UHGV virus genome: UHGV-0220852
Origin: a virus
Strand: one strand, 5' to 3'
Length of the DNA stretch: 13,295 nt
Position numbers and translations under genes: made by a program
In this document: one piece after another, positions 2,422 through 13,295 of the stretch
Numbering within the stretch: position 1 is the first letter of the stretch
How the letters are laid out: every line of letters begins with the position of its first letter
Notes under the pieces: generated by a model
The model's database searches: none
Told to the model about the DNA's origin: nothing
What the model saw: the letters and a program-made list of their open reading frames with translations, nothing else

Positions 2422-2823
2422 GTGGAGGGCAACACCACGCTTTACGCCCTGCCGAAACCCGAGGTTGTCCTGCGCTGGCGTGAACAGACCACAGATGACT
2501 TCCGCTTCTGTTTTAAGTTTCCGGCGACCATTTCGCATCAGGCAGCATTACGACATTGCGATGATTTAGTGACTGAATTTTTGACCCGCATGTCACCGTT
2601 GGCTCCGCGCATTGGGCAATACTGGCTGCAACTGCCTGCCACATTCGGCCCACGGGAGCTGCCTGCGCTTTGGCATTTTCTCGATTCTCTCCCTGGCGAA
2701 TTTAATTATGGTGTGGAAGTCCGCCATCCACAGTTTTTCGCCAAAGGGGAAGAGGAACAAACGCTTAATCGCGGTTTACATCAGCGCGGCGTTAATCGGG
2801 TGATTTTTATTAGACACGTTTAA
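2422..2823 (+). pseudogene. yecE: Internal fragment of a DUF72 (YecE-like) gene, apparently cut at both ends by insertions
   Basis: 133-aa ORF VEGNTTLYALPKPEVVLRWREQTTDDFRFCFKFPATISH...YWLQLPATFGP...VEVRHPQFF fits the DUF72/YecE pattern but covers only about the middle of a ~270-aa protein; it ends abruptly (...NRVIFIRHV*) 50 bp before the serine recombinase gene and starts 27 bp after the integrase stop. Confidence 0.6.
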
Positions 2824-2875
2824 ATACACTACCTAAAGCGATACAATCTAGGTATCAGTTTTGAGGTGGTAAACA
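2805..2875. other. Putative left attachment junction (attL) of the serine-recombinase element plus recombinase promoter/RBS region
   Basis: yecE homology stops here; short inverted repeat ACCTA-N14-TAGGT at ~2832-2855; RBS GAGGTGG before the recombinase ATG. Exact crossover not determinable from one junction. Confidence 0.3.
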
Positions 2876-4399
2876 ATGAAACGTGTCATTTCATACATTC
2901 GTTTCTCATCAGAGAAGCAAGCTAAAGGCGACTCACTCCGCAGACAATCTAAGATGGTCACTGATTGGCTTAAGGCTCATCCTGAGTACTACCTTGACCA
3001 AGATTTATCCTTCCGTGATTTGGGGGTGAGTGGGTTCACTGGTAAGCACTTGAAAGGTGGCTTAGGTGACTTCTTAACCGCTATCGAGAAAGGGCTTGTT
3101 AAAGCTGGTGATACATTATTAATCGAGAGTTTAGACCGTTTGTCACGTCAGGCCGTAGACCGAGCAAGTGAGCTATTACGAAACATTCTTCGCTCTGGTG
3201 TAGATGTAGTCACCCTGTCCGATGGTGAACATTACACAAGTGAGTCTCTTAAAGACCCGTTAGCTCTGATTAAAAGCATTTTGATAATGCAGCGGTCGCA
3301 TGAAGAGAGTTTGAGGAAGTCTGAGCGTATACAAGCTGCATGGGATGCAAAGAAAGAAGCTGCTAAAGCTGGTATCAAGATTTCTAAGCGTTGTCCTGCA
3401 TGGCTTAAGCTTAATGATGACCGTAAGACCTTCTCTGTGATACCTGATAAAGTGGAGACTGTGAAGAGGTGCTTTCAGCTACGGTTAGAGGGTAAGTCTA
3501 TCTGGGAGATTGTCAGAACTCTTAATGCTGAAGGTCACCGGTCGATGAACCAATACAAGCCGGGTAAGTTTGGTCAAACATCTGTTCAAGACCTTTTGAA
3601 GAATCGCTCTGTAATTGGATACTTTACCCCGAAAGGCTGTGAAGAGATTGCAGGTTATTACCCGTCTGTAATTGATGAGACAACATTCTACAAAGTCCAG
3701 CAACTATCACATTCTCGTCACGGTCGAAAACCTGTTTCAGATAAACCATTGAGTGTGAATCTCTTTAAAGGGGTTATCCGTTGTTCTGAATGTGGTCATG
3801 CTTTGATTATCACAGGCTTTAGCGATACAAGAAACGGGATTTATCGTTGTCCTCTTCGTAATGAAAACCGTTGTAGTGCTAAAGGGCTGTCACGTAAGCA
3901 AACCGATGGTACATTGCTTACCCTGCTATCTCGTCTTGACCGATTTGATAGCGATATGACGAATACCATAGACACACTGAAGCTACACCGTGAACACATC
4001 TCAAGCAATATTGAGAAGCTGGTACAGCTATCACTTGAAATTGAAGACCTGAACGCTATTACCAACAAGCTAAAACAACTAAAGAATGAGTTATCACAGG
4101 TTGATGCTGATATCGAGAAGGAGACACAGCGGCTTAAGTCTATCGATACAGGCTCTTTGTCCGATTGTGACTTGAGTACAAAGGCGGGAAGGATTGAAGC
4201 ACAACTGATAATCAAAAGTGCTGTTAAAGAGGTCGTTTTAAATACTGCTAAACGTCGCTGTAAAGTGACTTTTCACAACGGTAAGTCAATCACCTTACCA
4301 ATAACAGAAAACCCCTCAGAGGACGTTACAGAGGCTATACAGTCGCTTTCTGAAGTCACTGAGAGGGGTTTAATAGACGTTGATGTAGTAGAGATTTAG
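2876..4399 (+). CDS. Large serine recombinase (phage/ICE-type integrase)
   Basis: 507-aa ORF: N-terminal resolvase-type catalytic domain (YIRFSSEKQ with serine nucleophile, ...[12 protein letters not shown]...), recombinase domain, Cys-rich zinc ribbon (CSECGH...YRCP...C) and C-terminal coiled coil; strong RBS. Confidence 0.9.
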
Positions 4400-5169
4400 T
4401 ATCTTTTGTTAGGATTCACACTAAACTTCTTCAAAGTACTACCTGTACCAGCATTATTAAGCACCTTTGAAGCTTGCTCATTAGCGGCATCTGAGAAGGT
4501 GCTTTTTCCATTCTTAATTTTGACACTTCTACCACAATTGATACGGGCTTGAAGTTGCTCATTAGTGAGTTCACTCGTAGAGCGATTATATAGCTCCTGA
4601 CACATCAACATACCGTTACCTAAACTTGTTGTGGTGTTTCCAGTATTCTTTTTAGAAGTTGCTCCACCATCATTCGTGGTAGCGGTCTTGCCAGTAGCAG
4701 ATGAAATATCAGTTTGCCCTACGATTGAACGAAATTCTACACCTTGGAAGGTCATCTGAATACGAAGACCATTAGCAATGGTATGCTCTTTACTCGCTTT
4801 AAACTGAGTAATGATACTATCAGTGATAGATATTCCATCTTTACAAACAATAGTGATGATTTGCTTCTGGTCTCGCCATTGTTCAACCGTAGAAATAAAG
4901 GTTTCTACAAGTTGCCCCTGTCTGGTTAATAGAACTGAACCCGTCGAATCAACCACTACAACACCGCTAATAGAGATGGTCTTAGGTGCTCTCTGAACAT
5001 TATCAGTTATAGTTTGCCCCGATTGCATAGCCTGAGTTGTCACCATCATCGGTGAGTCATAGTCCATCTGTTCAGTAGCTGTTAAGGCAAGAAAAGATTC
5101 TACATTATCTCTAAGGTGAAAATAGATACCATCTTTACCTGAGTATCTAATTTGCTTTGTGTCAAACAT
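4396..5169 (-). CDS. Hypothetical protein (257 aa); possibly tail-associated (sits immediately downstream of the tape-measure-like gene)
   Basis: Long ORF converging on the recombinase gene with a 4-bp stop overlap; Thr/Ser/Gly-rich mid-section; no motif I can name. Confidence 0.55.
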
Positions 5170-5253
5170 TGTTGTTATTCCTATTCTGTTAAGCGTGAGC
5201 TACGTGAAATCTAATTTTTGATGTTGGTATCTGTTCAGAAGAAATCACGTAGC

Positions 5254-5317
5254 ATTCGACTATTCATAGTTGAATCGTCATACTAGATAAAGATTAATAG
5301 ATTGCCATGTGTGGCAA
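5254..5317. promoter_or_regulatory. Two palindromic operator-like sites in the 174-bp gap upstream of the 257-aa gene
   Basis: ATTCGACTAT-tc-ATAGTTGAAT (5254-5275, 10-2-10 with one mismatch) and TTGCCA-tgtg-TGGCAA (5302-5317, perfect 6-4-6). Confidence 0.3.
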
Positions 5318-5342
5318 TAAATATTAGTAGTTCTAACATTGT

Positions 5343-7418
5343 TTATTCCTCTGGGTAAGCTGAGCTAATCAAGGTATCTTCCTGCATACGATTAATATGA
5401 GATGTGGTTCTTTCATCAATAACCTTTCCATCAAGTACCGTCTGAGTTGTGATATTGATTGTCTGAGGCTGAATGTTTACTGACGGCTTGATAACCTTTA
5501 AATCTTGTGTGAATGTTTCCACTCGACCTTTCAGATTATTTAATGCTTCAGGTGAAAACTGTGGAACATCCTTTGATTTGCCCTGAACCATAGCCCATAA
5601 AACAGCAGCTAAAGAGTTCATGTCACCAGTCAATGCTTGGTCTGTGGGTTCCACCTTTGACCTTACAACTTTGTCAATTGGATTATCTGACTTACTCATC
5701 TGACGTTCATAGAACGGTTTAACAATGGAGTTAATCACATCAGTTGCCATACCGACAATCATTACTTTGGTAATTGCATCAGCTACAGATAATTTTCCTT
5801 TACCACCTTCAATACTACCGGAACGTGAATTAATTCTTCCTGCTGCTGTATTTGCTACATTTCCAAGCGTGGAAATAGCCCTAATTAAGCTCCAGATGCC
5901 ACCTACAGCACCAATACCAGACCTTACAGCAACAATACCAGCAAGTCCCTTTAATGCACTTAACAGGCCATTTGCGATACCATCAGCTACAGCTTTTTGA
6001 GTGTCATTTAATTCTCTGTAAGCAAGGGTCACTCTGTCAAAGAATCCCTGCACTCGGTAGCTAATCGTGGTTAAATCATCAATACCGTTTGACATACTTT
6101 TCATCAAGTCGCCAAAATGTTCACCAAGATTTTTTGATTGCCCACCTAGCGAATTAAGTAAATTAGTCAGTGACCTTGTAAAGTCTGTTAAACCTTCCTG
6201 TGAACCGTCGAACATTAAGGCCAGATTATTATTCCATGAATTAGAAAGGCGGCCTAACTGCGTCTGAGTAGAGTTAATAATCTTTTCCCATCCACCAGCT
6301 TTATCAATCATCCTTCCCATTTCAGCGGATACTTTAGGAAGAACATCTTTAGAAAGAACTTTACCGTCTTTCATAGCCTTGTCTAATTCTTCTGTAGTCA
6401 TCCCAAGGCTTCTGGCAAATAACTGGAAAGCACCTGCCATTCTGTCACCTAATTGACCACGTAGCTCTTCAGCCTGAATCTTCCCTTTAGAAGCCATCTG
6501 CTCGAAAGCTTTCAGAATCCCGTTAATTTCATCAGTACTTAAACCCATTAATCTGGATGTGCCAATCACATTAGAAAATAGGGATTCTTTCTGGTCTGTA
6601 TTCATATCACCAGCACCAGCGGAAAACTTAGCAAAACTGCTTAATGTTTCAATCTGGTCTACACCTGTATTATTAGCAAGATTCTTAACGAAGTCTGTAG
6701 CTCGTTTAGCGCCTTCATCGCCTAATACAAATTGTGCCGCTCGTTGTGATGCTTCTTTTTTCAGGCCAATCTCCATAACCTTCTTGTAAGCTTCTAAGGC
6801 TGTCTGAAAACTATAAATGGCTGTACCTGCTTTGATTGCACTTGTAGCTAATACATCCAGACCATTCGAGGCATATTCACTGTGATTATTTTTGCTGGTG
6901 GTCTTATTAAACTTAGAAAGTGTTTCACGTAGATTTTGATTTAATTTTGCTAACTCACGATTAAAAGCTTCGTTTCCAAGTGTCTTGGATTTGCTGCTTA
7001 AGCTGTAATACTGACTCTTAAAATACTTCTCAAGCATAGGATTAAAGTCACGAAGCTTGCTCATATCCACGCTATGTGCTGCTGTGATTGCTCTGTTGCC
7101 GCTAATTCGTGGCTGTCTTGGCTGTCTAAGTGGCTTTAAAGTATCCTCAATTTCCGTTTTAATCTTAAACGCTCTAGTGTTTTTAAGACGCTGCTCAATC
7201 TTGTCAAAGGTCTTATTAAACTTCCTTTCAAGTTGCCCTAAAGAACTTGTCAGATTGCTGTCAAGTTGCTTGGTATCGACCTTAAACGCTCTATTCAAAT
7301 TACGTTCAATTCTTTGTGCTGACTGCAAAGCTGCCTTTTCAACTCTTTGCAAGCCCTTAATAACGTTTTCATTGAAGCCTAGCTCAACGATAAAACTATC
7401 AACTGTGAATTTGCTCAT
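5343..7418 (-). CDS. Tape-measure-like protein (phage tail length tape measure / minor tail family)
   Basis: 691-aa ORF: coiled-coil-like N-terminus, central segment ...GLSTDEINGILKAFEQMASKGKIQAEELRGQLGDRMAGAFQLFARSLGMTTEELDKAMKDGKVLSKDVLPKV... resembling the conserved TMP core, and Gly-rich hydrophobic stretches near the C-terminus. Assignment is by motif memory, not a search. Confidence 0.6.
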   Translation of the reverse strand: MSKFTVDSFIVELGFNENVIKGLQRVEKAALQSAQRIERNLNRAFKVDTKQLDSNLTSSLGQLERKFNKTFDKIEQRLKNTRAFKIKTEIEDTLKPLRQPRQPRISGNRAITAAHSVDMSKLRDFNPMLEKYFKSQYYSLSSKSKTLGNEAFNRELAKLNQNLRETLSKFNKTTSKNNHSEYASNGLDVLATSAIKAGTAIYSFQTALEAYKKVMEIGLKKEASQRAAQFVLGDEGAKRATDFVKNLANNTGVDQIETLSSFAKFSAGAGDMNTDQKESLFSNVIGTSRLMGLSTDEINGILKAFEQMASKGKIQAEELRGQLGDRMAGAFQLFARSLGMTTEELDKAMKDGKVLSKDVLPKVSAEMGRMIDKAGGWEKIINSTQTQLGRLSNSWNNNLALMFDGSQEGLTDFTRSLTNLLNSLGGQSKNLGEHFGDLMKSMSNGIDDLTTISYRVQGFFDRVTLAYRELNDTQKAVADGIANGLLSALKGLAGIVAVRSGIGAVGGIWSLIRAISTLGNVANTAAGRINSRSGSIEGGKGKLSVADAITKVMIVGMATDVINSIVKPFYERQMSKSDNPIDKVVRSKVEPTDQALTGDMNSLAAVLWAMVQGKSKDVPQFSPEALNNLKGRVETFTQDLKVIKPSVNIQPQTINITTQTVLDGKVIDERTTSHINRMQEDTLISSAYPEE

Positions 7419-7520
7419 TGTTCATGTTTCACCTCTTTAAGTGTTCATATACAAAAAAGGGAGAGCTACCGATGTCACTCGATAATCTCTCCCGTTGATT
7501 TTTACCCAACCAATTCTTTT

Positions 7521-7739
7521 TTAATGTCTGACAAGATAATATAATTCCGTTTCACCTATGATTTGGGCATCAGAAGGGATACGGTCGATACACCACTTTG
7601 GAATCTTGCGTGTTTTTGGTTTGTGTGAGGTGATAACTTGACGTTGATTTCCAATTCGTAGCTTTGGTTTGTTGGGTTGTTCTTTCAATCGTTCACTAAT
7701 TGCTTTAATAAGCTCATAGCGTTCTGTTAAATCAATCAT
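7521..7739 (-). CDS. Hypothetical basic protein (72 aa)
   Basis: ORF with AGGTG RBS 4 nt upstream; Lys/Arg-rich; same operon as the TMP-like gene. Confidence 0.5.
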   Translation of the reverse strand: MIDLTERYELIKAISERLKEQPNKPKLRIGNQRQVITSHKPKTRKIPKWCIDRIPSDAQIIGETELYYLVRH

Positions 7740-7762
7740 TCACCACCTCACATTAGTTTCAA

Positions 7763-8179
7763 TTAGAAGTCCAGCAATTCCTCTATTAAGTAGCCTTTTC
7801 CAGCTAAATCCCGATACCGCTTATCTAATTCTGCCTGATAAGAATCGAGATTTTTTAGATAGTCATCTTTAAATTCAGCAAGTAACTCTTCATTAGTTTT
7901 ACTGGTAAAGTCCCTGATGTAACTCCCACCAATCGCTACGCTAATAGTTCTTGTTCCATCATCAAAGTCTATCATTTCAGTAATTTCTGGTGGATTATAA
8001 CTATCTCTTAATCGCTCAATATCCCGATTAACATCCCTAATCAGGAAAGTTAAGTCATCTCGACCATCAAATTTTAAATCTTCCAGAGACTCACCTTCGT
8101 AAATACGTTCACGAAGATATCCGGTAATCTCATCGATAGCATCAAACTTCTTTCTAAGAATATAAAAAATAGGACTCAT
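7763..8179 (-). CDS. Hypothetical acidic protein (138 aa)
   Basis: ORF with GAGGTG RBS that overlaps the stop of the upstream 236-aa gene; Asp/Glu-rich. Confidence 0.55.
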   Translation of the reverse strand: MSPIFYILRKKFDAIDEITGYLRERIYEGESLEDLKFDGRDDLTFLIRDVNRDIERLRDSYNPPEITEMIDFDDGTRTISVAIGGSYIRDFTSKTNEELLAEFKDDYLKNLDSYQAELDKRYRDLAGKGYLIEELLDF

Positions 8180-8187
8180 TCATCACC

Positions 8188-8898
8188 TCAAAGTGCTTTG
8201 CTATATTTCTGAGAAATCTTCGTAAGCTGCTCAATATCAGCCTGCATAGCAACCTTCTTAGCATCTTCATATTCTTTCACAAGCTCTTTCATAGCCTGAA
8301 GCTCTCTTGAGAGATACAACTTAGCACTATCAAGCTGCTTGTTACGTGATGCCAAGATGTTCTGTTTAGCAAGTTCACAGAGTTCTTCATCGCTCTTATT
8401 GGTCATGTAAATAAACTGACCAGCACCTCTTGATGCCTTAACCATCTTCACAATTCGATATCCAGCAGGAAGACTACTAATCACGGCTGCGACGTTTTCT
8501 TGAAAAGTACCAAAACCATCATTATCTTCGTATTGGTAATAGACAAATGGTTTCTGTGACAATTCATCCTGAATCTCAAATTCTGATGGCTCAATAGCTG
8601 ATTGCATCAGGGTAACTTTACTGTAAGCATCATCTAGTTTAATACGCTGTGCTTTTAGCAGTGGGTAATATTCACGCTCAAGATTAAATAGTGCTTCAGT
8701 TTTACCAATATCGGGCATCTCTTGAGACTCAGGCGTCACAAAGATGATTTCCTTTGGTGACATCTTTAACTCTTGCTCAAGTGCAATTCTTTCATCGTGT
8801 TCTTTGCGCTGGATAGTGATAGCTGGATGTTCAGTCTGTGGCGACCAGTCACCGAAACTATCAATCACTTTGTTATTAATGTAAATATCGTTTGTCAT
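8188..8898 (-). CDS. Hypothetical protein (236 aa), first gene after the long leader
   Basis: ORF with AAGGGGA RBS; C-terminal region looks coiled-coil; no recognisable motif. Confidence 0.6.
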   Translation of the reverse strand: MTNDIYINNKVIDSFGDWSPQTEHPAITIQRKEHDERIALEQELKMSPKEIIFVTPESQEMPDIGKTEALFNLEREYYPLLKAQRIKLDDAYSKVTLMQSAIEPSEFEIQDELSQKPFVYYQYEDNDGFGTFQENVAAVISSLPAGYRIVKMVKASRGAGQFIYMTNKSDEELCELAKQNILASRNKQLDSAKLYLSRELQAMKELVKEYEDAKKVAMQADIEQLTKISQKYSKAL

Positions 8899-9040: not shown

Positions 9041-9228
9041 AAGGTGAAGAAATTAAAAAAAATATCTAAAGGATTCAATAACGAATGATTAAGCACTTTT
9101 CGAGATGACCTCTCAGGTTGTATAAGAGGCCATGTAGCGAAAAGCATTGCACCTTTCAGAATAACTATCCCTAGATGTAGATGGAATTGTTGAAAGAAAT
9201 AAGAGAGAATTACTCTCCCATAATTAAA

Positions 9229-9257
9229 ATTATGTCATGCTTAAGGTTATTTGTCAA
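9229..9257 (-). promoter_or_regulatory. Sigma70-type promoter reading leftward (TTGACA-17-CATAAT)
   Basis: Consensus -35 (9257-9252) and CATAAT -10 (9234-9229) with 17-bp spacer on the minus strand, ~320 nt upstream of the 236-aa gene start. Confidence 0.5.
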
Positions 9258-9281: not shown

Positions 9282-9359
9282 TCAATTCTTATTTACTGTG
9301 TTACCCATCCAGCAACCAACAAATAGCCCTAAAGCCGTCCAGAGAATAACGAGCATCAT
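9282..9359 (-). CDS. Candidate 25-aa hydrophobic peptide (MMLVILWTALGLFVGCWMGNTVNKN)
   Basis: Start overlaps the stop of the upstream 102-aa gene (ATGA), suggesting translational coupling; too small for the ORF track. Unproven. Confidence 0.3.
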   Translation of the reverse strand: MMLVILWTALGLFVGCWMGNTVNKN

Positions 9360-9664
9360 TGCATCACCTCACTGTAAGGGTTTAATTCATTCTGATAGGT
9401 CAAGAATACATTCAGCTTCAATAATTGCTCCGGGCTTAAATCAAGTCGGTTGCATTCGCTTGTGATAAATCTCTTGTAGTCTGGGTCTGTTACTTCCAGT
9501 TTGTGAACAAAGTCACCAAGTTTAATTTCGTTGATTATATGCTTGTCAATATACGTTGATGCTTCAAAACAATGCATGAAATAGATATTAAAGCCTGACC
9601 TGTTCAGGTCATTAAGCCAATTCATAGTTTCTTGGTCAACCATAACTTGCATTGAATAATTCAT
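9356..9664 (-). CDS. Hypothetical protein (102 aa)
   Basis: The ORF table extends it to 9697 from a TTG; the ATG at 9664 has an AAGGAG RBS 9 nt upstream and avoids overlap with the structured element, so the shorter form is preferred. Confidence 0.6.
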   Translation of the reverse strand: MNYSMQVMVDQETMNWLNDLNRSGFNIYFMHCFEASTYIDKHIINEIKLGDFVHKLEVTDPDYKRFITSECNRLDLSPEQLLKLNVFLTYQNELNPYSEVMQ

Positions 9665-9684
9665 TTTTAAAATCTCCTTTTTAC

Positions 9685-9806
9685 CAGACCTCCTCAATCG
9701 CTCTGTAACGAGCCAAACAGTCTTTTTCAGGGGTAGCCTGTACAGTGGTATTACCCACCCTAAAATAAGGTAGTTTTTTGCGTTAGAATGCGATTGAGAG
9801 CGTCTG
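9685..9806 (+). repeat. Structured repeat element, copy A (candidate ncRNA/regulatory element)
   Basis: Shares conserved 5' and 3' blocks with copy B; CTCAATCGC (9693-9701) pairs with GCGATTGAG (9790-9798), plus outer CAGAC/GTCTG; G-U wobble implies the + strand folds. Confidence 0.5.
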
Positions 9807-9819
9807 AGAAGCTGTTTTT

Positions 9820-10107
9820 CTAATTTCTCTTAAAGCCTCGGACTTGCATAAGATTTTTTGGTCTGGTATCGGCTCTGTTACCATTTCGATGGATAATTTG
9901 CTTGTTGGATTGATAGCCATGATAAAGAAACCAGACAACATATTTCACGTAGAAAGTATATCGGCCTATATTAAATGTTTTGTTGCCGTAGTCGTCGGTA
10001 ATTATCGTGACTGACTCTCCATCAGACCAGTACAGGGAATCACTGGATTCATCATAGATAAGGTGTTCTGTAAAATATCGTCTAACATCTTCATGCCAAG
10101 GTTTCAT
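9820..10107 (-). CDS. Small HNH endonuclease (HNH_3-like)
   Basis: 95-aa ORF ...YTFYVKYVVWFLYHGYQSNKQIIHRNGNRADTRPKNL... fits the small HNH family; GAGGAGG RBS; start overlaps upstream stop (ATGA). Confidence 0.65.
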   Translation of the reverse strand: MKPWHEDVRRYFTEHLIYDESSDSLYWSDGESVTIITDDYGNKTFNIGRYTFYVKYVVWFLYHGYQSNKQIIHRNGNRADTRPKNLMQVRGFKRN

Positions 10108-10319
10108 AAAACCTCCTCACCCCAATAACCTAATTCAATCTTGTGACGCTCAAACCATTCTGGCCTGACTGCTGTTTTCAGTACTTCATTTGGGCCAATG
10201 GCTTTAATGAAAATATCTTTTGAGTTATGGATGTCACCGAATCCGTTTCCTTTAATCAGGAGGTCGGAGATGTAGCGAATCATTTTATCCGTGTGGTATT
10301 CAAAGGTAACGCATAGCAT
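10104..10319 (-). CDS. Hypothetical protein (71 aa)
   Basis: ORF coupled to both neighbours (TAATG overlap upstream, ATGA overlap downstream). Confidence 0.5.
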   Translation of the reverse strand: MLCVTFEYHTDKMIRYISDLLIKGNGFGDIHNSKDIFIKAIGPNEVLKTAVRPEWFERHKIELGYWGEEVL

Positions 10320-10597
10320 TAAACCCCCATTGCTAACTTGTGAATCTTAATACTCAATAGTCGGGCGATATCAATTTTAAAGTTGTTTAGTCCCTTCAAA
10401 GTATCTAAAGCGTCCTGAGTAATTCGGATGTGTTTACGACCTTTAGAAACTGGATATTTAAGTAAATCCGACTCAGTGACCTCTTTAGCAATTGCAAGCT
10501 GCATAACAGTCTGATGAGGCAAGTTAGTAGCTCGTTTAATTCTGGTAAGCTCGTTAAAAGCTTCCTCTGAAATACGGGTTAATGTGTGTTTATTCAT
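10319..10597 (-). CDS. Putative ribbon-helix-helix (CopG/Arc-like) DNA-binding protein (92 aa)
   Basis: Start moved from 10699 to the ATG at 10597 (GAGGA RBS; TAAAATG junction with upstream gene). N-terminus HTLTRISEEAFNELTRIKRATNLPHQTVMQLAIAK has the strand-helix-turn-helix pattern of RHH repressors; a second RHH-like stretch (KHIRITQDALDTLKGL...IDIARLL) may follow. Confidence 0.5.
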   Translation of the reverse strand: MNKHTLTRISEEAFNELTRIKRATNLPHQTVMQLAIAKEVTESDLLKYPVSKGRKHIRITQDALDTLKGLNNFKIDIARLLSIKIHKLAMGV

Positions 10598-10598
10598 T

Positions 10599-11030
10599 TT
10601 AAAATTCCTCCAAAATATACGGGTCAAACTCAAAGTCTGGTTGCTCGTTTTCCATTGGCTCAATATTACCAACGGCCATATGATGCTCAACAACACCAAT
10701 TAACTTTGCGCACATTACAGCAAGCAAAGCGCAATATTTATCGCTTGGTAATTCATGGCTAAGTCTGGTTGCTTGACGCTGAAGATGATTTGTCACGTTG
10801 GCTGCGTTAATTTCATCAAGATTCTTTAGAATATAAAATAGCTTTCTGTTGTATTTTGGGTGACCTTCACTTCTACAGAATCCGATAATTACTTCGTCAA
10901 TGCCTTTGCGTTCTGCTCTGGTGAACTTGGGTACTTCGTGGCTGGTGGGGGTGTCTGTGTAAGCGTAGGAGTTGTATCTGTTACGTTGTCTCGATGCCTG
11001 AAGCATCGCTCTAAATTCTCTGTCGTTCAT
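10599..11030 (-). CDS. Hypothetical protein (143 aa), first gene of the leftward coupled operon
   Basis: ORF directly downstream of the leftward promoter; acidic C-terminus; no recognisable motif. Confidence 0.6.
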   Translation of the reverse strand: MNDREFRAMLQASRQRNRYNSYAYTDTPTSHEVPKFTRAERKGIDEVIIGFCRSEGHPKYNRKLFYILKNLDEINAANVTNHLQRQATRLSHELPSDKYCALLAVMCAKLIGVVEHHMAVGNIEPMENEQPDFEFDPYILEEF

Positions 11031-11079: not shown

Positions 11080-11108
11080 ATACTAGCATTTTCAAAGACT
11101 AATGTCAA
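11080..11108 (-). promoter_or_regulatory. Sigma70-type promoter reading leftward (TTGACA-17-TAGTAT)
   Basis: -35 at 11108-11103 and -10 at 11085-11080 on the minus strand, ~50 nt upstream of the 143-aa gene. Confidence 0.5.
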
Positions 11109-11114
11109 GTATTT

Positions 11115-11144
11115 TTAACATTTTATTAACATCTATGGTATAAT
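11115..11144 (+). promoter_or_regulatory. Sigma70-type promoter reading rightward with extended -10 (TTAACA-18-TGgTATAAT)
   Basis: -35 at 11115-11120, TG at 11136-11137, TATAAT at 11139-11144; sits back-to-back with the leftward promoter, -35 elements 6 bp apart. Confidence 0.55.
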
Positions 11145-11326: not shown

Positions 11327-11515
11327 ATGGTAAATCTCCCTCCTGAACTGGGGTCACCTGATGTATGGGCTGGTGGAGGTGTTGGGCTGATTGCAGGCTT
11401 ACTACTTCGCTATTTCATCGTCAGGGTGTTTATCGTGTTTCGGTTGTTTGGTCGTGAATGGTCGTTTGACCTCAAGGACAGGACCAGAACAGACAACCAC
11501 ACAGAACCCCGTTAA
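11327..11515 (+). CDS. Candidate small single-pass membrane protein (62 aa)
   Basis: ATG with AAGGA RBS 6 nt upstream; MVNLPPELGSPDVWAGGGVGLIAGLLLRYFIVRVFIVFRLFGREWSFDLKDRTRTDNHTEPR has one hydrophobic helix and a charged tail. The ORF table's 112-aa version starts inside element B and is probably over-extended. Confidence 0.45.
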   Translation: MVNLPPELGSPDVWAGGGVGLIAGLLLRYFIVRVFIVFRLFGREWSFDLKDRTRTDNHTEPR

Positions 11516-11629
11516 ACTCCCTTCAAAACCCCCTGTACGTGATGGTATAGGGGTATCTTTAGCATTTTGTGCTATCTATTAAAAAATAGCTTGACAGAAC
11601 CGGAAAGCTGTATCTATCAAGCATTCACC

Positions 11630-11806
11630 TCTCTGACAGTAACCTCTAAAAGTTCTTATTTTTCAATAAATTGTAATTAGCCATATATAGAGAACTGACA
11701 AGTCTCTTCACAATTAACTCTGTAACCTTAACAGTGATTTCTAAAAATACTTATTTTTCAATAAGTTGTAATTAGCCAATATAAAGGACTGACAAGACCC
11801 TCCACA
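11630..11806. repeat. Tandem direct repeat, two copies, ~95-bp period
   Basis: Copy 1 ~11630-11711 and copy 2 ~11725-11806 share a near-identical core CTTATTTTTCAATAA[A/G]TTGTAATTAGCCA and ACTGACAAG; no ORF. Confidence 0.7.
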
Positions 11807-11835
11807 GAGAACTTCCTGGACTCACTAAGATACAA

Positions 11836-11861: not shown

Positions 11862-12048
11862 ACCTTCTAATTGGTATTGTTATGAGGATGCTTCATCCGA
11901 ATCATCTACCAATCCCTAAACCGACTTCTTAAACAATCTTTACAGACCCCGTTCACCAGTCTCAATATTTTATTTCTCGCTCTTCGTTTGTTGCTCGTTT
12001 CTATTATTGAGGGGGTTTGAAAAACCTCTGTAAAATAACCCTTCCAGT

Positions 12049-12121: not shown

Positions 12122-12790
12122 TTAGCCCAACCTTTGAACAATCCTGTAAGTGGTGCTTAGAGGCATTCTTAGCGATTCTGCGATGCTCTTGATGGATTGC
12201 CCTTGGTCATACATTTTAATCAACCTGTCAAGCGTCTGTGCATCGTGTATATGAGGTCTTCCACGTAAACCACCCCTGTTAACCACGGCAAGTAAAAGCA
12301 TTGTGTCACCACAATAGATTGTCTGGGTAACTTCAACTTTCGGTTTGCGGGGTGTGTTCCTGTATATCAAAACGCAACTTGGAAACGGTGAACGCGCTGC
12401 AACACCTTTCTTCCCTGCTGGTGGAAGGTATTTGACTGCTCGGTGTAACGTTCGAATCTCATGCAGAAAGGGGTTTGTATATACACATCGAAGCCAGTAA
12501 GTTGTCTTTGACCTGTGCGGAACCAGACATACACACACATCAGCTTCAGGGGCTTTTGAGAGGAACCGTTCAGCCATGCTAAACGGCGGGTTACAGAAGA
12601 CCCGTTCACCAACCCATGATTGACGGCTTATATCATCGGTGAACCGTGGCAACAATGCGTCATGCTCAGTTGCAGCACCATCCATTGAGAAACTAAATTC
12701 TCGGTGTAGGTTACGAAATAAACGATACGGTGTACGCCAGTCATCAGAACCACCATGATAACGACCGACATTGATTATTGGATGTGACAC
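12122..12790 (-). CDS. Phage-type DNA N6-adenine methyltransferase (Dam family) with C-terminal resolvase-type HTH extension
   Basis: 222-aa ORF (GTG start): ...SDDWRTPYRLF...MDGAATEHDA...WVGERVFCNPPFS...VCLVPHRSKTTYW... matches the small phage Dam family; the last ~50 residues GRPHIHDAQTLDRLIKMYDQGQSIKSIAESLRMPLSTTYRIV resemble the HTH of Hin/resolvase-type recombinases. Confidence 0.8.
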   Translation of the reverse strand: MSHPIINVGRYHGGSDDWRTPYRLFRNLHREFSFSMDGAATEHDALLPRFTDDISRQSWVGERVFCNPPFSMAERFLSKAPEADVCVCLVPHRSKTTYWLRCVYTNPFLHEIRTLHRAVKYLPPAGKKGVAARSPFPSCVLIYRNTPRKPKVEVTQTIYCGDTMLLLAVVNRGGLRGRPHIHDAQTLDRLIKMYDQGQSIKSIAESLRMPLSTTYRIVQRLG

Positions 12791-13295
12791 AAGCGAAGCG
12801 CCCTCTTAGTATATTTCTTAATCATCTCTTTAGCATTTAGTGCTTTTTGTTAAGTTTAGCACTTTTTGCTAAAGACAAAACACTTGACAAAATGGTAAGA
12901 TTGTTCACATAGCCCTTACTTAACAGACTTTTAAGAGACTTTGAAACGACCTACTTAACAAGGTCACTACCTCTGGTCTTATCACTCCCTCTTGGTAGTT
13001 CTGTTAATAATTTTTCAGTTCTCTCTTAAGACAACTGTTAAGACAGAACCTACCTTCGGTTTTCATGGTTCTCTTCCCCCGTTAAACAGTCCTTCCTAGC
13101 AACTTCATAGTTATCTGTCAAGTGCCTTTGAAGATTCTATCAAGACCTCTGAAGCTGACCTGATATAGATGCTGTGAAGGCATATTCTCTAGGTCTGTGT
13201 AGCTTACTTAGTGGGAAGAGAGGGATATAGTGACCATAGGGGAACCCCTCCTGTTAAAAAGACTACTTAGAAGTCTGAGACTTTAGTAAAATCTG

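Follow-up and report, generated by a model that had tools for sequence, protein, structure and literature searches.

Why should a tape measure gene lie at a locus without head genes and end up against a recombinase? The question is posed by a 13,295-nucleotide (nt) stretch of DNA catalogued as virus genome UHGV-0220852 (hereafter the window, at its full length). A sequence-only reading had noticed there a 691-amino-acid (aa) protein with a tape-measure-type core, encoded in a leftward group of five genes, and had left three options: a degraded prophage, a satellite-like element providing a helper with a tape measure of its own, or a protein with a tape measure domain but a role outside the tail. 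The analysis reported here indicates that the window carries a discrete mobile island with a tail-initiation gene pair of Ounavirinae type. We lean toward the second option, in which the island parasitizes virulent myoviruses of the Felix O1-like type (Ounavirinae) as a satellite and resembles the PLEs of Vibrio cholerae.

Results

The 691-aa Protein and Its Neighbor Form an Ounavirinae-Type Tail-Initiation Pair

Profile searches bore out the assignment of the 691-aa protein to the tape measure proteins (TMPs). It scored 76.6 bits against Pfam TMP_3 (cut-off 41) and 60.5 bits against TIGR02675 (cut-off 21.35), and it matched the PHROG TMP family phrog_4036 at 1e-100. The match to PDB chain 9ndy_F, which is gp017 of phage Bas63, was collinear from end to end (E=4.2e-77). 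When the protein was used as a tblastn query, 175 phage records were retrieved at a length coverage of at least 80%. The best matches, at 100% coverage and ~29-30% identity, were to Felix O1-like Ounavirinae myoviruses with genomes of 84-91 kb. Similarity to the TMP of phage Sf14 is unevenly distributed along the protein: the first 45 residues are ~80% identical and a core of ~60 residues is 66-86% identical, whereas the remainder is 6-30% identical. The C-terminal motif …QED(T/I)L(I/L)xS(A/S)YPE(E/D) is shared with the Sf14 TMP, and its YPE/FPE part is kept in all TMP types found in sister copies of the island. Island TMPs have 678-725 aa vs. 742-745 aa for phage TMPs, and are thus 17-67 residues shorter across copies.

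The sequence-only reading had seen nothing resembling a tail tip after the TMP gene. This view has to be revised, since the 257-aa product of the next gene is a Dit-like tube initiator (TI). It matched Pfam Dit_like PF21821 (2.9e-17; 63.4 bits, cut-off 24.2) and PDB chain 9ndy_A, the experimentally resolved TI of Bas63 (gp018), at E=2.8e-107. The database label "phage baseplate protein" can therefore be refined to TI. The protein is 68% identical to Sf14 gp113, whose gene lies immediately 3' of the Sf14 TMP gene (gp114). Matches were found in 299 phage records, all of them from Ounavirinae-type myoviruses, with top identities of 67-73%; the TIs of the different island copies fall inside the phage diversity (62-82% identity). 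In Shigella phage Sf14 and Felixounavirus NBEco005, genes for sheath, tube, two chaperones, TMP, TI, spacer, hub, and spike follow one another in this order. TMP and TI are adjacent there, and the island thus holds exactly that pair. In every island copy compared, the TI gene follows the TMP gene. Cryo-EM of Bas63 has revealed that the TI, as a hexamer, is the adaptor between the C3 hub and the C6 tube and that the last 25 residues of the TMP touch the hub and the puncture apparatus (PMC12609058). With high confidence, we consider the TMP and TI of the island to be functional and of Ounavirinae type.

The Pair Belongs to a Discrete Mobile Island with Fixed Boundaries

The window corresponds to the yecE locus of Escherichia coli, where the 5' half of yecE stops at ~2807, at an attL junction (Table 1). 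In the copy EA2, a matching attR (…CCTTGATGATTTT meeting AGACAGCCGCC) is joined to the 3' half of yecE, and ~11.3 kb is inserted between the yecE halves. This insertion comprises the recombinase, TI, and TMP genes, a gene for a ~70-aa protein, a p236 homolog, a small-gene block with an HNH endonuclease, a Dam methylase gene, and non-coding DNA. The size of the island is ~11.6 kb, and the window is without the final ~1-1.5 kb of the element. The same architecture of 11-12 kb is shared by EA2, Ecol_517, JEB8, SW070917, five further E. coli assemblies, and Citrobacter; an 11-12 kb island lies between the yecE halves in EA2, Ecol_517, JEB8, SW070917, and loci L025-L030.

The first island gene in the window encodes a 507-aa large serine recombinase, which is 92-96% identical among the yecE copies. 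It is convergent with the TI gene, the two overlapping by 4 nt, so that the module indeed abuts the recombinase. Three att sites are used, each with a different large serine recombinase: yecE, a site beside wrbA, and the yciI/ompW region. The module is present in 482 of 5,426 complete E. coli genomes (~9%), always in the chromosome and in up to four places per genome. A TMP of E. albertii is 98% identical to that of the window, and homologs of the island proteins p72 and p236 were also found in Shigella, Citrobacter, and Salmonella. The GC content of the island is 39.8% vs. 47.8% in the left flank, and it comes close to the value of 38.9% that has been reported for genomes of Felixounavirus.

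Neither the window nor any complete sister copy examined contains head, portal, terminase, sheath, or tube genes. This agrees with the reported absence of capsid, terminase, and major tail genes, and the sister copies show no ordinary siphovirus tail module beyond the window; the likely helper is a Felix O1-type myovirus, not a siphovirus. Many copies of the island have no neighboring prophage. We conclude with high confidence that the element is a discrete mobile island.

The flank to the left of the island (1-2395) has a history of its own. An element of the IS3 family of insertion sequences (orfA at 1125-823, the rest beyond the left end) lies upstream of a 354-aa open reading frame (ORF) for a tyrosine integrase. 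This integrase (1331-2395) belongs to a neighboring lambdoid prophage and not to the island. Since the same integrase has 437 aa in SW070917, the insertion sequence apparently truncated the integrase of a lambdoid PPyecE/Stx-type prophage that stands in tandem with the island. In the records of Stx1a/Stx2a-converting yecE phages, a stretch 99.5% identical to the yecE 5' segment (2406-2807) bears the annotation "duplication due to insertion", and we therefore take this segment to be the yecE stretch that is duplicated when those Stx phages insert. Thus, yecE is occupied here in tandem by a tyrosine-integrase prophage and a serine-recombinase island.

Island Genes Are Mosaic and Under Purifying Selection

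The ratio of nonsynonymous to synonymous substitution rates (dN/dS) was calculated by the Nei-Gojobori method for the window copy vs. 15-19 others. The values were 0.11-0.36 for TMP, 0.14-0.26 for TI (full-length copies), 0.20-0.44 for p236, 0.17-0.55 for p72, and 0.12-0.19 for the recombinase. Hence, the island genes are under purifying selection. They are intact in the complete copies examined; shorter matches correspond to contig ends or partial loci. The copies are also mosaic: with the recombinase at 92-96% identity, identities range from 43 to 98% for TMP, from 63 to 98% for TI, and from 59 to 81% for p72. The window TMP is itself a mosaic, with an N-terminal segment as in Ecol_517 and the remainder as in EA2 and PK8241.

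The Non-Coding Right Arm Shares DNA with the Terminal Region of Felixounaviruses

A low-stringency DNA search of the remaining island DNA against phage records returned short matches, all of them in unannotated Felixounavirus DNA. One is a 51-nt element that is identical to a non-coding segment of NBEco004 (Table 1). Further matches were obtained by blastn at 12909-12940, 12939-12990, 12991-13043, and 13131-13154. The phage counterpart is a gene-free region of ~1.7 kb between convergent gene blocks; it contains the 51-nt match and is rich in TCTTAACA, CTAACAAG, and CTTTACAG repeats. When the right arms of six islands were compared with three such phage regions, 5-14 patches were detected in each arm (16-82 nt, 75-100% identity, E<0.01). 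The control, for which the coding left arms (~8 kb) of three among the six islands were used, gave 0, 1, and 0 patches.

For phage vB_EcoM_E9, direct terminal repeats (DTRs) were assigned with PhageTerm by its authors (PMC11737134). An exact repeat of 580 bp is found at the two ends of its record, within the gene-free region. Island patches fall inside this DTR at ~249-317 and 530-554, and the window patch 12939-12990 corresponds, via the EC106/EC6 matches, to ~249-302 of it. The distance between the 51-nt element and attR is ~35 nt in EA2; in Ecol_517, the element is present twice. With high confidence, therefore, the island shares terminal-region DNA with Felixounaviruses.

Scanning the right arm for Rfam families and tRNAs gave no match. 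As RNA, the 51-nt element is not significantly stable (z=+0.36), so it is more likely a DNA site. The density of CTTAACA-type motifs is modestly higher in the right arm than in the left arm and far lower than in the phage region, a result that is not decisive.

Two other observations concern the same DNA. Just upstream of the 51-nt element, two tandem units of ~83 nt (11636-11813, ~95 nt apart, 77-88% identical) each contain a promoter-like CTGACA/TTAACA…TATTTT site. In addition, the Ounavirinae non-coding segment that is matched by the coliphages is matched as well by positions 135527-135583 of GU169904.1 (Staphylococcus phage SA1); this points to Felix O1-like sequence in that record.

A Conserved Terminator Separates TMP and TI from the Genes Upstream

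The five-gene leftward operon of the sequence-only reading stood in its gene content but has to be qualified as a unit. All five minus-strand ORFs (p236, p138, p72, TMP, and TI) were confirmed, and a strong terminator at 7453-7493 splits the first three from the TMP-TI pair. The folding energy of its hairpin is -21.1 kcal/mol (z=-3.94), and 0 of 200 shuffled sequences were equally stable. Across six island copies, both the stem and the loop sequence have been conserved, including copies whose TMPs share only ~45-50% identity. A conserved terminator at this position would fit a gated "late" expression of TMP and TI.

Upstream of p236, the top-scoring promoter candidate of the minus strand (9257-9229, 11 of 12 matches) is followed by a terminator-like leader hairpin (9221-9199). 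The leader hairpin and the pre-TMP terminator both have a GGGAGAG…CTCTC(CC) stem, which could reflect shared control by antitermination or RNA binding.

Table 1. Positions of the features of the island in the window
Feature	Coordinates	Strand	Basis
attL junction: yecE end ~2807 …CGGGTGATTTT; island start ~2808 TATTAGACACG…	2797..2830	.	Direct sequence reading
Large serine recombinase, 507 aa, island integrase	2876..4399	+	Pfam Resolvase + Recombinase + Zn_ribbon_recom; PHROG integrase 2.7e-79
TI, Dit-like baseplate protein, 257 aa	4396..5169	-	PDB 9ndy_A, Pfam PF21821
TMP, 691 aa	5343..7418	-	Pfam TMP_3, TIGR02675, phrog_4036, PDB 9ndy_F
Intrinsic terminator/regulatory hairpin (14 bp) + U6, 5' of TMP gene	7453..7493	-	Minimum free energy, shuffling, conservation
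p72, small basic protein, 72 aa	7521..7739	-	In every island copy
p138, accessory orphan, 138 aa	7763..8179	-	Restricted to one island sub-lineage
p236, acidic coiled-coil protein, 236 aa, core to island	8188..8898	-	AlphaFold2 model; cluster counts
Sigma-70-type promoter TTGACA-17-CATAAT with TG, plus leader hairpin, upstream of p236	9199..9257	-	Consensus match only
Leftward small-gene block: p143, p92, p71, HNH_3 endonuclease (95 aa), p113	9356..11030	-	ORFs; HNH_3 2e-8
Divergent promoter pair (putative regulatory switch)	11080..11144	.	TTGACA-17-TAGTAT (-), TTAACA-18-TATAAT (+), both with TG
51-nt element	11867..11918	+	100% identity to non-coding NBEco004 311-361
Dam-type N6-adenine methyltransferase + C-terminal resolvase-type HTH_7	12122..12790	-	Pfam Dam 4.2e-13, HTH_7 1e-5
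Terminal-repeat-like patches	12909..13154	+	blastn vs. EC6, EC106, NBEco004 gene-free regions

Most Other Island Proteins Are Orphans

The p236 family comprises 3,113 clusters at 90% identity and only ~5 full-length representatives at 50%. Among the island copies, two alleles that are ~27% identical were distinguished. The AlphaFold2 model of p236 (pLDDT 79.5) is a helical hairpin with a small alpha/beta domain, and its fold matches were to generic coiled coils only. No relative was found among 50,697 phage records. Many homologs carry the PGAP label "transposase"; Pfam, NCBIfam, PHROG, PDB sequence, and fold matches do not support this label, and the database annotation should be corrected accordingly.

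Only six clusters, every one from E. coli and with identities of at least 97%, represent the p138 protein. It is missing from the other island copies compared, and profile libraries and a PDB sequence search returned no family or structure match. The p138 gene is an accessory insertion. The p72 protein forms 112 clusters in Escherichia, Shigella, Citrobacter, and E. albertii, and its AlphaFold2 model (pLDDT 75) gave no fold match. A G/GT frameshift pair of p138 and p72, which the sequence-only reading had already dismissed, was rejected here as well: the 72-aa frame is closed by a stop directly 5' of its ATG, the two genes are separated by a 23-nt gap without overlap, and each has its own GAGGTG ribosome-binding site. 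Neither protein showed BLASTP similarity to the tail chaperones of Sf14 and NBEco005. Resemblance to a tail assembly chaperone (TAC) was not detected in PDB sequence searches, and the p236 and p72 models had no TAC-like fold match.

The leftward small-gene block is kept in most island copies. Its proteins p143, p92, p71, and p113 had no family match in the profile libraries, and the HNH gene showed no relationship to Ounavirinae homing endonucleases. The position of the Dam methylase at the right end is a variable cargo slot, which is occupied elsewhere by an HNH_3-AP2 protein, a 277-aa protein, or a small serine recombinase of 182-191 aa. Directly upstream of the start of the Dam gene, whose product has a helix-turn-helix domain, an 18-nt inverted repeat (TCTTTAGCATTTAGTGCT / AGCACTTTTTGCTAAAGA, 12827-12875) was noticed, with a third half-site copy 1.27 kb away at 11556-11582. 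It looks like an operator for this methylase or for another regulator.

Rightward from the divergent promoter region runs a gene (11327-11515, +) whose 62-aa product has a single predicted transmembrane helix (MVNLPPELGSPDVWAGGGVGLIAGLLLRYFIVRVFIVFRLF…). A terminator-like hairpin (11530-11553) stands after the gene. In most of the copies compared, the protein is conserved at 73-97% identity; it may act as a toxin, in lysis, or in exclusion. In the Citrobacter copies L030 (5916-6878) and L031 (5728-6675), the leftward regulatory block is headed by a gene for a 315-320-aa protein with a weak HTH_36 match, where E. coli copies carry a gene for a 143-185-aa protein. The Citrobacter protein is a candidate replication initiator or regulator.

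Discussion

A Satellite of Felix O1-Like Phages as the Favored Explanation

Among the options considered at the outset, a satellite whose own tape measure is provided to a helper has the best support, and the PLEs of V. cholerae provide a published precedent. The element is best explained as a new PLE-like satellite family or, at least, as a family of tail-targeting anti-phage islands directed against Felix O1-type myoviruses. We consider it somewhat more probable than its converse that the island is a PLE-like parasite of these phages, and we have moderate confidence that it acts by chimeric-tail assembly combined with packaging and transfer by the helper.

According to this model, infection by a Felix O1-like phage would induce the island to express its own TMP and TI, possibly via read-through of the conserved terminator. 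The C-terminal motif of the TMP would then dock to the hub and puncture device of the phage, and the tube-like core of the TI would adapt the hub to the tube, so that, in the tail-initiation complex, the island pair would stand in for the gp17/gp18 equivalents of the phage. Onto this pair, the tube, sheath, baseplate wedges, and fibers of the phage would be built, giving chimeric, slightly shorter tails. The terminal-repeat-like DNA in the right arm may let the packaging or replication machinery of the phage act on island DNA. Tentatively, we go further and propose that the islands form the first family in E. coli and related bacteria whose members are satellites of virulent phages; the family would be an unrelated PLE analogue that relies on TMP/TI substitution and terminal-repeat mimicry. 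In this proposal, p72 or p236 may be an Rta-like inhibitor of the helper TMP, so that only chimeric tails form.

Several points weigh against this model. Between two phage genera, TMP identity is 79%, whereas it is only 28-32% between island and phage; compatibility with phage tails is therefore not guaranteed. An attempt to track the helper by TI alleles gave only a weak trend. The role of the phage terminal region is assumed. Packaging of an 11.6-kb island by a phage with an 88-kb head would need concatemers or a small capsid, neither of which is explained by the island genes, and no replication initiator, small terminase, capsid-size factor, or TAC was recognized among the island proteins. 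Finally, the matches in IMG/VR are provirus calls in bacterial genomes that include host flanks, and thus they are no evidence of encapsidation.

Competing Explanations

The competing explanation with the strongest case is that the island serves defense only. Its TMP and TI would be dominant-negative decoys that dock to the hub and yield nonfunctional or mis-sized tails; phage production would be aborted at the population level, and the island would not be transduced. A TMP with conserved ends and a body that has diverged to 28-32% identity would suit a poison subunit, and the blocking of tail assembly is an established defense strategy (Tai, Tab, and Rta). The variable cargo end, with Dam, HNH/AP2, or small-recombinase genes, resembles a defense hotspot, and replication or packaging genes were not recognized. 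This explanation leaves unaccounted for the multiple patches of terminal-repeat-region DNA in the non-coding arm, the near-identical TMPs in different species, and the use of several att sites. No known defense family was detected by PADLOC. Moreover, defense and transmission coexist in PLE, so a defensive function may be a partial, non-exclusive description. As a complete account, we regard defense alone as rather unlikely.

The remaining explanations fit the data less well. A temperate helper, such as the adjoining lambdoid yecE prophage, could take the place of the Felix O1-like phages: the island stands in tandem with a PPyecE/Stx-type prophage in the window, SW070917, and L030, and yecE, wrbA, and ompW are classic lambdoid integration sites. 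We consider this very unlikely, since TMP and TI have no detectable relatives in lambdoid siphoviruses, all of their significant matches being to Ounavirinae-type myoviruses, the shared non-coding DNA is Felixounavirus-specific, and many copies lie without an adjacent prophage. Equally improbable is a TMP-like protein with a role outside the tail, for example a membrane or periplasmic effector that merely shares TMP_3. In its favor, the TMP_3 domain is broad, and none of p236, p138, and p72 can be recognized as a tail chaperone, but the protein is collinear over its full length, both termini included, with TMPs resolved in virions, it keeps the C-terminal motif for hub docking, and the gene of the cognate TI always follows. 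A degraded prophage, the last tail-module remnant of a once-complete temperate phage, deserves almost no credence. The integrase does adjoin tail genes, the region is called proviral by IMG/VR, and a genuine lambdoid prophage remnant lies directly to the left of the island. Against decay, a unit of 11-12 kb recurs with identical boundaries at three att sites, its ORFs are intact and under purifying selection, its gene content is constant across copies, and islands exist without a neighboring prophage. In addition, TMP and TI match only Ounavirinae-type myoviruses. Felix O1-type phages are virulent, and a lytic lifestyle was predicted for the records examined. Intact selected genes, fixed boundaries, and a virulent source lineage together exclude a decaying prophage.

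Implications

Chimeric-tail satellites have so far been demonstrated only for the V. cholerae PLE and ICP1, and a full-text literature search found no published description of an Ounavirinae-linked island in Enterobacteriaceae. If the satellite model is correct, the hijacking of tail initiation would emerge as a general satellite strategy, with an independent and widespread family in E. coli, Citrobacter, and Shigella alongside PLE. It would also place this strategy in the most tractable genetic system, with the helpers Bas63 (BASEL collection), Felix O1, phiSUSP1, and Sf14 at hand. Felix O1-like phages are widely used for the biocontrol of Salmonella and E. coli, for typing, and for therapy. 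An island that is present in ~9% of E. coli genomes and interferes with or rides on such phages could alter their efficacy as well as gene transfer. Satellite finders based on PICI, P4, and PLE markers would probably miss these islands.

Comparison with Known Systems

The closest parallel is PLE. The island described here is ~11.6 kb in length, and a PLE is ~18 kb. A large serine recombinase carries out the integration of PLE (PMC6002521). A TAC gene and a TMP gene occur in all PLEs, joined in PLE11 by a gene for a baseplate hub protein; the products are only 20-41% identical to their counterparts in the virulent myovirus ICP1 (PMC12987554). PLE virions contain the PLE TMP in tails that are ~10 nm shorter, and deletion of tmp cuts transduction by 96-99.9% (PMC12987554). 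Like PLE, our element is a compact chromosomal island with a large serine recombinase (here with Resolvase, Recombinase, and Zn_ribbon_recom domains). It has a partial tail-initiation set, a TMP and a baseplate-proximal protein, that is strongly diverged from that of a virulent myovirus; its TMP is shorter than that of the phage, and most of its other genes are orphans. The two differ in host and helper, which are Enterobacteriaceae and, putatively, Ounavirinae for the island vs. Vibrio and ICP1 for PLE. Because its hosts are Escherichia and Citrobacter and not Vibrio, the island is an analogue of PLE and not a PLE. They differ also in the second tail protein, which is a TI and not the hub protein BhuB, and no TAC was recognized in the island.

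Felixounavirus and Mooglevirus phages provide the direct homologs of the pair (Bas63 gp17/gp18 and Sf14 gp114/gp113). Gene order is kept, and the TMP termini and core as well as the tube-like domain of the TI are conserved in the island. In contrast to these phages, the island has the pair alone, without chaperone, hub, spike, wedge, tube, or sheath genes, and has it behind an island-specific terminator.

Tape measure genes have also been described in other satellites. They were predicted in PLE-like elements of other Vibrio species and also in a number of cf-PICIs (PMC12987554, Extended Data Fig. 10 for the latter), and EPIPs are TMP-encoding satellites of Mycolicibacterium (bioRxiv 2025, PMC12822802). 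EPIPs and cf-PICIs are satellite-sized and have their own TMP, as does the island, and EPIPs share with it a serine integrase. They differ in that they carry head or packaging genes (small terminase, capsid, scaffold, and adaptors), which the island lacks, and in that they depend on temperate siphovirus-type helpers. Assignment of the island to the PICIs or cf-PICIs was rejected, as its proteins include no tyrosine integrase, AlpA-type regulator, primase-replicase, capsid, or packaging domains. A P4-like satellite was likewise rejected, with no PHROG or Pfam match to Sid, Psu, Delta, or the alpha primase. With Tai, Tab, and Rta, finally, the island shares carriage on a mobile element and the step that would be affected, the assembly of the phage tail. 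Those are small proteins unrelated to tail components, whereas the candidates of the island are full-length homologs of the tail components themselves.

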